A stretch of 15,712 nt of DNA from a virus (lineage: Duplodnaviria > Heunggongvirae > Uroviricota > Caudoviricetes): the IMG/VR virus record IMGVR_UViG_2700989173_000009, one strand, 5' to 3'. A program made the translations under genes and the position numbers. The stretch's first letter is position 1. Each line of letters opens with the position of its first letter. Below the pieces are notes generated by a model that saw nothing but the letters and a program-made list of their open reading frames with translations, made no database searches and was not told the DNA's origin. Shown piece by piece: positions 1,794 through 2,605 of the stretch.

Positions 1794-1939
1794 TCACGCT
1801 GGCGGCACGCAGCCGCCACACATCAATCATCTGAACACAGAGCTATAACCATGAAGATTGAATATACGCCAGAACGTGGGCGGGGATTCGTTCGCCCTGG
1901 TGAAACTGGAAAACCACAAAATTGGGGTTTTTCAGGCAT

Positions 1940-1967
1940 AAAAAAAGCGGCCCCGAAATGGAGCCGC
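1940..1967 (-). terminator. Rho-independent terminator oriented for leftward (minus-strand) transcription
   Basis: GC-rich hairpin GCGGCCC-gaaat-GGAGCCGC (1947-1967); on the minus strand it is followed by 7 U (complement of the A-run 1940-1946). Implies a leftward transcript arising somewhere in 1970-2470. Confidence 0.5.
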
Positions 1968-2469
1968 CTTTCTGAACAGATAACCCGCTGCGCCGTTTGT
2001 GTGTGTGATCCCAAACATAAGCACGGGGATGATAGCCGCTATCAGGCTGGTGGGCAATGCAATCAGTCTGGTTCAGTGCGTTGCCATAACTGCGAAGTTC
2101 TCTCCTTTGATGAGTATTCTTTAAGGTACTTCTCAAGGGCAAAAGAACACGGCGCGAATCGTTCTGATTCATGCTCTTTCTTTCTGCGTCGTCTTTTTCG
2201 TGCAGGTGATGTTTTTTCGGTTGATTCTTCGTTGGTCATTGTGTGCGCCTGTAAAGCAATGCGCCGTAGTACCTCACACCACGGCGCTGATAGTTTTTAT
2301 CCTTTGGGTTCTATGCCGCGTTGCTGTAATTCTTTGCGGATTATTCGCTTTATCCAGGCAGCAAGAGAATCATCGCCGTCCTGTTGTTGTGCCTTTTCCA
2401 TCTTTTCCCGTAAGTCAGGATCTAAACGGAACTGGAACGGAGGATTACCACGCCTTTCGTTTTTGTGTG

Positions 2470-2499
2470 TTGACACGTTAATTACACCTCAGGTAATGT
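2470..2499 (+). promoter_or_regulatory. Putative sigma70 promoter of the rightward replication operon (-35 TTGACA, 18-bp spacer, -10 TAATGT), embedded in GTGACAC/TTGACAC dyad elements
   Basis: TTGACA at 2470-2475 and TAATGT at 2494-2499. Flanked by CA/GT-rich imperfect inverted repeats (tgtgtgTTGACAC ... GTGACACattacacaca, 2463-2527) that look operator-like. First downstream gene with a strong RBS starts at 2606. Confidence 0.5.
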
Positions 2500-2543
2500 A
2501 TTTATGTGTAGTGACACATTACACACAATCAACACAAAAAGCA

Positions 2544-2576
2544 AAGCCCCGCACTGTAGGAGCAGTAACGGGGCTT
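2544..2576 (+). promoter_or_regulatory. Stable leader hairpin (8-bp GC-rich stem AAGCCCCG / CGGGGCTT, 17-nt loop) in the 5' UTR of the replication operon, no U-tract
   Basis: Read directly; lies between the putative promoter and the first RBS (AGGAG at 2596-2600). Lacks a T-run, so not a classical intrinsic terminator; could be an RNA processing, stability or regulatory structure. Confidence 0.4.
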
Positions 2577-2605
2577 CTAACCAACAACGTAAACTAGGAG
2601 CCGTT

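Follow-up and report, generated by a model that had tools for sequence, protein, structure and literature searches.

The DNA considered here, positions 1794-2605 of the 15,712-nt window IMGVR_UViG_2700989173_000009 (the whole stretch analysed, whose positions serve as coordinates unless another locus is named), lies between alpA and the replication operon of an integrated capsid-forming phage-inducible chromosomal island (PICI), an AlpA-type phage satellite of Escherichia coli and Shigella that adjoins phoQ. Two small genes are read leftward across it. The first (2297-2476, minus strand) encodes a 59-aa protein that looks like an Arc-like ribbon-helix-helix (RHH) regulator, and the second, here called ORF2 (open reading frame 2; 2063-2239, minus strand), encodes a 58-aa protein of PHROG 21027. 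An untranslated stretch and an intrinsic terminator follow, and to the right of the regulator a repeat-rich control region separates the unit from an operon read rightward from 2606. On the opposite strand, the whole leftward unit is overlapped by one long open frame.

The regulator gene starts with a GTG at 2476, 8 nt downstream of a Shine-Dalgarno sequence read from the DNA (GAGGTG; 2485-2490, minus strand), and ends with a TAA at 2299-2297. An earlier note on this DNA had started the ORF at the ATG at 2401, which gave 34 aa; the actual start lies 75 nt further upstream and yields 59 aa. In 63 of 80 genomic loci (one-genome-per-species contigs), a GTG or ATG aligns with the first codon of the window gene. 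A search of 5.8 billion proteins returned 117 clusters of homologues, nearly all of 59 aa, from Escherichia, Shigella, Citrobacter, Klebsiella, Serratia, Pantoea, Yersinia, Xenorhabdus, Frischella, Mannheimia, and other hosts, spanning Enterobacterales, Orbaceae, and Pasteurellaceae. Over a gap-free 49-codon block in 77 unique sequences, the minus frame has the lowest ratio of nonsynonymous to synonymous polymorphism (pN/pS) of all six frames, 0.31, and contains no stop codon (0/77); the gene is intact in 80/80 loci. In the AlphaFold2 (AF2) monomer model, helices 20-33 and 38-52 have a predicted local distance difference test score (pLDDT) >90, and the N-terminal segment is unstructured. The predicted strand segment (residues ~12-18) is not formed in the monomer, which is expected for a strand that pairs only in a dimer. 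The predicted structure is similar to solved RHH proteins, and residues 5-57 match PHROG 228, "Arc-like repressor" (E=2.1e-6); a PDB sequence search with the profile of the regulator family gave only a non-significant match to NsrR. Judging from the model and the PHROG match, the product looks like a small Arc-type RHH DNA-binding protein. A non-coding RNA in place of this first ORF was considered and rejected, given the stop-free, low-pN/pS frame and the Arc-like match.

The minus frame reads as the earlier note described it: ...MEKAQQQ...IEPKG, TAA at 2299-2297, 19 codons, and then, from the ATG at 2239, on to ...TEPD and a TGA at 2065-2063. That note had left the choice among two small genes, one disrupted gene of about 110 aa, and a non-coding RNA, and had raised the question of whether the TAA is a mutation. 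Alignment of the window with four E. coli relatives (L001-L004) identifies the TAA as the native stop, and two small genes is the correct choice. The regulator stop codon occupies one aligned position in 5/5 loci, which carry three different alleles: L001 and L004 have a diverged allele of the window regulator, with ATG where the window has GTG and with the C-terminus RKELQQRGIEPKG in common, and L002 and L003 have a 101-aa YlcI/YnfO protein in the regulator position. The 59-aa length is kept throughout the 117 clusters and 80 loci. The spacer between regulator and ORF2 is a constant 57 nt in 17/17 E. coli loci, whatever the regulator allele, and holds a stem-loop that begins 9 nt after the regulator stop (2261-2287, minus strand; -19.3 kcal/mol, z = -3.4; weaker on the plus strand) as well as an AGG-type ribosome-binding site before the ORF2 ATG. 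The hairpin is recognizable in nearly all of these 17 loci, again regardless of the allele beside it.

ORF2 is a gene separate from the regulator. Its product has a disordered, Arg/Lys-rich N-terminus and a single long helix in the AF2 model (pLDDT 71), and it has no match in Pfam or NCBIfam and only a family of unknown function in PHROGs. The 24 ORF2 clusters come from Escherichia and Shigella only, and ORF2 was not detected beside the regulator in the remaining 79 loci of the 80-locus set. It is intact in 16/16 E. coli loci, with in-frame indels and variable ends around an invariant core, EHESERFAPC.F.LE..LKEY, in which the minus frame has the lowest pN/pS (0.23). The ORF2 sequence common to L001 and CFT073 is contained in X019, a "novel gene" of enterohemorrhagic E. 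coli (EHEC) EDL933 reported by Neuhaus et al. in 2016 (PMC4765031). X019 was recorded with RNA at 68.9 reads per kilobase per million (RPKM), ribosome footprints at 241.9 RPKM, a footprint coverage of 77%, and a ribosome coverage value (RCV) of 3.5 (PMC4765031, additional file 8), and its predicted promoter lies 269 nt upstream of its start, that is, beyond the regulator gene (PMC4765031). This RNA and these footprints (PMC4765031) thus show transcription and translation of a close homologue of the leftward unit in EHEC without induction. A non-coding RNA in place of ORF2 is unlikely in light of the intact ORF, the pN/pS of its core, and the X019 footprints.

In other genera, the slot of the second gene is filled by small lipoprotein-like ORFs or by a second RHH, and the regulator stays. 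In L007, L011, L048, and L050, the regulator is followed (just after 4177-4180) by an ORF of ~50 aa that has conserved Cys residues and an N-terminus resembling a signal peptide or lipobox, and that starts at an ATGA overlap with the regulator stop in the first three; the second gene of L043 is another RHH. In all five loci the second gene is in the regulator's frame. The slot after the regulator looks like a position for exchangeable cargo or for a co-factor.

Downstream of ORF2, the 3' untranslated stretch of the leftward unit (1968-2062, minus strand) is 97-99% identical in L001-L004. It leads into the intrinsic terminator (1940-1967, minus strand), composed of a stem-loop at 1967-1947 and a U-tract at 1946-1940. 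The earlier note had taken this terminator as a sign of leftward transcription, and its strandedness is confirmed by folding: -21.7 kcal/mol (z = -3.6) on the minus strand versus -13.2 kcal/mol (z ~0) on the plus strand, where it is weaker because several G.U pairs turn into mismatches. Nine other loci have a terminator of this type (GGCGGCC...GGCCGCTTTTGTTTTA) at a distance of 180-620 nt downstream of the regulator stop. A 41-aa hydrophobic ORF with a TTG start in this stretch (2057-1932, minus strand) was set aside; it is interrupted by stops in L004, L086, L087, L089, and L090 and is probably not coding beyond about 20 residues. A 109-aa minus-strand ORF (2172-1843) runs through the terminator.

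The control region fits the earlier proposal that the leftward unit diverges from the rightward operon among repeats. The rightward promoter that had been placed at 2470-2499 is upheld in its conserved -35, TTGACA (2470-2475), and less so in its weak -10; the candidate now spans 2470-2497 on the plus strand, with a 16-nt spacer and GGTAAT at 2492-2497 (TGTAAT in relatives). The first codons of the regulator, (G/A)TG TCA AC, are kept in both specificity groups described below and are TTGACA on the opposite strand, which supports the promoter proposed in the note. The counterpart of the regulator Shine-Dalgarno, GGGTG, is likewise kept in the 44 group-1 loci.

Two 21-nt direct repeats with inverted partners up to 2540 make up the operator-like part of the region. 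Repeat 1 (TTTTTGTGTGTTGACACGTTA; 2460-2480, family D1) overlaps both the rightward -35 and the regulator start codon, and its conserved block across genera is GTGTAATTRACGTGTCAACAC. Repeat 2 (TTTATGTGTAGTGACACATTA; 2501-2521, D1, I2-I4) lies 41 bp from repeat 1, and its counterpart TGTAATGTGTCAYYACACATAAACACATTACA is conserved in 44 loci. The segment that differs between relatives extends from ~2303-2333 to ~2530-2541 and corresponds to the regulator gene plus the intergenic region. The repeats differ by allele: TGTGTxGTGACAC in the window, ACATGGTAATTAC twice in L001, TGTGATTCAGT in L002, and GTGTGTTTCA in L003. Differences between alleles of the protein are concentrated in the predicted DNA-reading strand, and the C-terminal helix is conserved. 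When regulator type and repeat type were compared over 63 loci, the strand PPFQFRL (44 loci) was found to pair with TGTAATGTGTCA in a near-invariant block with four TGTAAT half-sites, and the strand KQIALRV (19 loci) to pair with CCTGTCATACAC in a different block built on TGTCATACAC. At the level of sequence, then, regulator alleles and the repeats of the divergent region change together. We infer that regulator and repeats form an immunity-type repressor/operator module that would control the icd-replication operon; repression as the sign of this control is likewise inferred, by analogy with known systems.

The start of the rightward operon may be subject to a further element. A hairpin at 2544-2576, which a U-rich tract (2543-2535) follows on the minus strand, is conserved in 42 loci: compensatory changes are seen at 10 of its 14 pairs, and many U.G pairs are valid only in minus-strand RNA. 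Upstream on that strand, a -10-like hexamer, TATGAT (2624-2619), lies within the first icd codons; of its TA...T pattern, the T and A are invariant and the last T at least near-invariant in the 42 loci. Between this hexamer and the hairpin, CCUC, complementary to the icd Shine-Dalgarno, is presented by a small hairpin. Together, these features suggest a cis-antisense RNA of about 75-90 nt (2535-2624, minus strand), with a putative promoter, that would cover the Shine-Dalgarno and AUG of icd. Rfam yielded no family at gathering score in the window, and at E values up to 5 the interval 1500-3100 gave only chance-level matches, with no C4, isrK, or P4 CI immunity RNA among them. A terminator-like hairpin, CACACAAACGGCCTTTGTGTG followed by GCGTTTTCTG, is found on the plus strand within the first 20 Icd-like codons (2641-2661) and could be an attenuator of the rightward operon.

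The 248-codon open frame antisense to the leftward unit (1851-2597, plus strand) is in the frame of alpA; between 1605 and 2597 that frame is closed only by the alpA TAA. Its own TAG (2595-2597) sits inside the icd Shine-Dalgarno TAGGAG (2595-2600), with the icd ATG at 2606. Within 1794-2605 there is 1 stop in this frame versus 13 and 22 in the other two plus frames, and a simulation that kept both minus-strand proteins and shuffled the rest expects 8.7 stops in it (P(0) ~1e-4). The frame is stop-free over 741-1590 nt in 17/17 E. coli loci, across regulator alleles, ORF2 variants, and spacers. In other genera it spans the whole regulator gene in 61/80 loci (median 438 nt, maximum 1797 nt), versus 3/80 for each of the other two antisense frames and 27/80 expected from synonymous-codon resampling, although the loci are related and such counts overstate their independence. 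It is open in 41/43 loci with a recognizable convergent alpA versus 20/37 loci without one (Fisher p = 1.4e-5). No family in Pfam, NCBIfam, or PHROGs matches the frame at 1851-2597. Its sequence cannot be aligned between genera except across the terminator, operator, and hairpin, it contains stops in 17/77 unique homologue sequences, and it has a pN/pS above the minus-frame value. The earlier note had regarded a conserved plus-strand coding frame in homologues as evidence that would speak against a leftward unit. The frame is not conserved as a protein, and the leftward finding stands; yet its openness is conserved far beyond chance.

At its distal end, the plus frame usually leads into the Icd-like ORF. 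It either closes with the TAG in the icd Shine-Dalgarno or continues in frame into the Icd-like domain, as in the 428-codon plus ORF of CFT073 and the 433-codon plus ORF of L001, which includes Phage_ASH and Icd-like parts. The Phage_ASH segment (PF10554) lies between the operator region and the Icd-like ORF in some relatives (L001 4099-4437) and is absent from the window. The "Icd-like protein" pseudogene called by the Prokaryotic Genome Annotation Pipeline (PGAP) is this plus frame in L001 (3352-3945), L002 (2852-3409), L004 (2778-3371), and L086 (1989-2468), a label that arises because the frame reaches or enters icd. The annotation of these four loci omits or overlaps one or both of the small minus-strand genes, and in L094, L095, and L096 the annotated Icd-like gene is extended far upstream. 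In loci of a Citrobacter/Klebsiella type (L025, 3950-4174; L027; L033-L039), the regulator is intact and the antisense frame broken; nothing matching alpA, int, or primase was detected in the vicinity of the regulator, whose neighbors in L025 appear by eye to be toxin-antitoxin-like pairs.

Several explanations of the leftward unit compete with island control. The earlier note had suspected decay of the element, with a single disrupted gene of about 110 aa, and the two minus ORFs do share one frame in an element whose capsid gene carries an in-frame TGA. No relative, however, has a fused ORF, the stop, the 57-nt hairpin spacer, and the ORF2 ATG are kept in 17 E. coli loci, and 59 aa is the norm of the family; there is no sign of decay in the leftward unit, and we give this explanation practically no credence. 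An RHH gene that comes first in a two-gene operon also calls to mind a type II toxin-antitoxin pair, with an RHH antitoxin and a small toxin that would be unrelated to control of the island. A weak match of the regulator to a VapB-antitoxin profile (E=0.012) and the name "HicB family" that the Joint Genome Institute (JGI) attaches to some homologues point the same way. The regulator, however, has no C-terminal toxin-binding extension, and its position and its co-variation with the rightward-promoter repeats fit operon control. The partner also argues against a toxin, as ORF2 belongs to no toxin family, encodes a basic single helix of 58 aa, and, in other genera, gives way to small lipoproteins or another RHH beside a retained regulator. 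A toxin-antitoxin pair is very improbable in our judgment.

The opposite strand offers two further alternatives, of which the more radical is that the plus ORF 1851-2597 is the real gene and the minus ORFs are its shadows. PGAP annotation of the frame in four loci, its openness in all 17 E. coli and 61 of 80 other loci, its in-frame continuation into the Icd-like domain in CFT073 and L001, and the existence of PHROG 29966, a 188-aa family ending in Icd-like, would all be accounted for. On the other side, outside the Icd or Ash part there is no family match, the sequence aligns between genera only at conserved DNA or RNA elements, and its higher pN/pS is joined by stops in 17/77 sequences versus 0/77 in the minus frame. 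Where no alpA match is found the regulator is intact and the plus frame often broken (20/37 versus 41/43 open), and it is the minus products that are backed by fold, profile, and ribosome profiling. We consider it very unlikely that the plus ORF is the gene. A less exclusive possibility is that both strands are used, with regulator and ORF2 encoded on the minus strand and a plus-strand ORF that would serve processivity or coupling of alpA read-through to icd, its peptide being functionless. In its favor, openness is kept without sequence conservation, and the frame starts just after alpA and ends in the icd Shine-Dalgarno or runs into icd, across a terminator and a second hairpin that are both weaker on the plus strand. 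There is also published AlpA-dependent expression of a reporter fused to ORF3, which maps after alpA (PMC6092414), and a precedent in Gifsy-1 orf45, whose translation is needed for a downstream antirepressor (PMC4825925). The ribosome-binding site at the ATG at 1851 is weak, however, the counts come from related loci, and the frame is missing in 19/80 of them. Use of both strands is the reading of the plus frame that we favor, tentatively and with clearly less than even probability.

We think it reasonably probable that 1794-2605 is a leftward regulatory operon, consisting of an RHH repressor and ORF2, with a divergent promoter-operator region in a capsid-forming AlpA-type satellite. A leftward transcript from a promoter in ~2495-2535 would carry the regulator, the stem-loop at 2287-2261, ORF2, and the terminator at 1967-1940. 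Bound as a dimer of dimers, the RHH protein would occupy the allele-specific repeats (2460-2480 and 2501-2540), which overlap the rightward promoter (its -35 lies in the first three codons of the regulator) and probably the regulator's own promoter too. In the resting island, this would silence the icd-replication-packaging operon and place the regulator under its own control, much like Mnt/Arc in P22 immI or CopG on plasmids. More speculatively, transcription from the alpA promoter could proceed rightward over the weak face of the terminator and run antisense through the leftward operon, and translation of the plus frame 1851-2597 could guard this transcript from premature termination and bring ribosomes to the icd start. 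A two-strand switch of this kind in AlpA-type satellites, with the repressor operon and possibly an antisense RNA acting at rest and alpA-driven, translated antisense read-through on induction, is doubtful at present.

A number of observations weigh against the proposal of an RHH repressor operon. Pfam gave no RHH family match for the regulator; the YlcI/YnfO profile (NF041551) scores it at 20 bits (E=5e-4), with a curated cut-off of 30 bits, and an hhalign comparison with YlcI/YnfO alleles is weak (E=0.026). The pN/pS of 0.23 in the ORF2 core is only moderately better than the 0.40 of the antisense frame. A consensus promoter scan called neither divergent promoter, the one at 2470-2499 being missed because of its weak -10. 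Overexpression of AlpA alone induces EcCICFT073 (PMC6092414), and any repressor can therefore be overridden. Membership of the regulator in YlcI/YnfO was rejected, as the score falls below cut-off and the profile-profile comparison is weak; the alleles of CFT073 and L002, by comparison, score 67 and 66 bits. YlcI/YnfO proteins are annotated at this site in EcCICFT073 and many E. coli satellites. The likeness is one of locus, orientation, stop position, and size class (59 aa, or 101 aa where the C-terminus is extended), with a collinear alignment in which the strand Arg and the loop Gly are common to both. By sequence comparison, the window regulator is a positional allele from a family distinct from YlcI/YnfO.

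The arrangement can be compared with several characterized switches. In the immI region of P22, the RHH repressors Mnt and Arc act at overlapping divergent promoters, together with the sar antisense RNA. The window regulator shares the fold class of Mnt and Arc but no detectable identity in sequence. In further distinction from immI, the window operon begins with an Icd-like ORF and carries satellite replication and capsid genes, and the unit includes another small gene and is overlapped in full by an open frame on the antisense strand. The Stl repressors of Gram-positive islands are larger, helix-turn-helix proteins. A leftward regulator that diverges from a rightward replication-packaging operon is a likeness to the Stl(Rpr)-Str arrangement of Staphylococcus aureus pathogenicity islands (SaPIs) and other Gram-positive PICIs (PMC6092414); in the window the regulator occupies 2476-2297 on the minus strand and the operon begins at 2606 on the plus strand, the divergence expected of a master repressor. 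Stl is co-directional with int, whereas int (1-1230) and alpA (1605-1793) of the window are rightward and converge on the leftward unit, and induction of Gram-negative PICIs goes through AlpA (PMC6092414).

An Icd-like or leader ORF before the regulated genes is a feature common to the window and to P1 c4-icd-ant, P4 CI RNA/kil-eta, and Gifsy-1 isrK-orf45-anrP. Control of termination by translation is known from P4 immunity. The peptide of Gifsy-1 orf45 varies although its nucleotide sequence is conserved, and the downstream antirepressor depends on translation of orf45 (PMC4825925). Unlike the immunity RNAs of these systems, the candidate RNA of the window lies on the opposite strand, as a cis-antisense RNA, and the long ORF of the window overlaps a protein-coding, repressor-like operon, which is not so in P1, P4, or Gifsy-1. 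An arrangement that looks alike in another satellite is that of OGC51 and its "mother gene" WP_001303898 in EHEC EDL933 (bioRxiv 10.1101/2020.11.18.388249). OGC51 is a small leftward ORF starting MTNEE..., with ribosome footprints, antisense within an annotated ORF (bioRxiv 10.1101/2020.11.18.388249), and remote homologues of the mother gene are long "Ash," "Icd-like," or "AntA" proteins. OGC51 was published as an isolated overlapping pair with a vanadate phenotype, outside any satellite context, and it is only a positional analogue of ORF2.

The same gene order recurs well beyond the window: int, alpA, an optional BRO/AntA gene, the convergent small gene and regulator, and then the divergent Icd-like, DUF4222, and primase/helicase genes. 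The prototype Gram-negative PICI, EcCICFT073, has this layout (RefSeq genes C_RS30800 and C_RS30120), as do 15 other E. coli loci, including those of Nissle 1917, O157:H7, and O104:H4. The ORF2 region is present in 1697/5426 complete E. coli genomes (~31%). Of the 80 loci of other genera, 43 have a convergent alpA, 32 an int beyond alpA, and 29 a divergent primase. The earlier note had called a leftward regulator unusual for PICIs. This is so for the published descriptions of Gram-negative PICIs, from which it is absent (PMC6092414), and not for the elements themselves, given EcCICFT073 and the 1697 genomes. The PICI literature terms the Gram-negative repressor "unclear," and the paper on capsid-forming PICIs mentions no repressor. 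A 2023 survey describes a "Bro zone" with immunity RNAs in some Gram-negative PICIs and no RHH (PMC10111431), and in a 2026 survey YlcI/YnfO appears only among accessory genes, as prophage-associated (PMC13612085). Our search of the literature for RHH or YlcI regulators in PICIs found only such accessory or "prophage-associated" listings.

The remainder of the window is that of a capsid-forming PICI. By Pfam it contains int, alpA, primase, capsid, protease, portal, head-tail connectors, HNH, and large terminase, with no tail genes. The integrase gene (1-1230, plus strand) is an early gene, and alpA (1605-1793, plus strand; PF05930, 5e-18) is convergent with the leftward unit. The rightward operon on the plus strand opens at 2606 with the Icd-like ORF (2606-2806, plus strand; NF033153, 6e-18; PHROG 29966, 1743), followed by DUF4222, a D5/P4-type primase, and then the capsid genes; the late genes comprise capsid, prohead protease, portal, head completion, connector, HNH, and large terminase. 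All 11 window proteins compared are 99-100% identical in Shigella flexneri SFBU1023 (L005). The major capsid gene (6811-8016, plus strand) is split by a single in-frame TGA at 7684-7686, and the halves on either side match positions 1-166 and 169-278 of the Phage_capsid profile without gaps. Bases are undetermined at ~11117-11167, which appear as X in the translation, within the presumed small terminase ORF upstream of the large terminase. A promoter-like site, TTGCCA-17-CACAAT, precedes alpA (1515-1552, plus strand) and overlaps CTGACACAATCAGACACAT, which is similar to the GACAC-containing repeats of 2460-2540. GACAC/TGACAC as a common site of the alpA promoter and the operator was rejected, these motifs not being enriched in the window.

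Overall, the best-supported explanation of this region is an RHH immunity module in a class of elements for which no repressor has been described so far. A conserved, allele-diverse RHH gene with matching repeats is located where a repressor would sit, and alleles that act like immunity types would explain how different satellites in one cell are regulated independently. There is also a consequence for annotation, as PGAP often enters the plus frame as an "Icd-like pseudogene," with the two small genes missed or overlapped. If functional, the open frame on the plus strand and the putative antisense RNA would be the truly surprising parts. Were the two-strand switch true, a complete protein-coding operon would be overlapped by a frame selected only to stay open, and a functional antisense frame would clearly exemplify, in bacteria, selection that acts on translation as such across an operon on the other strand.

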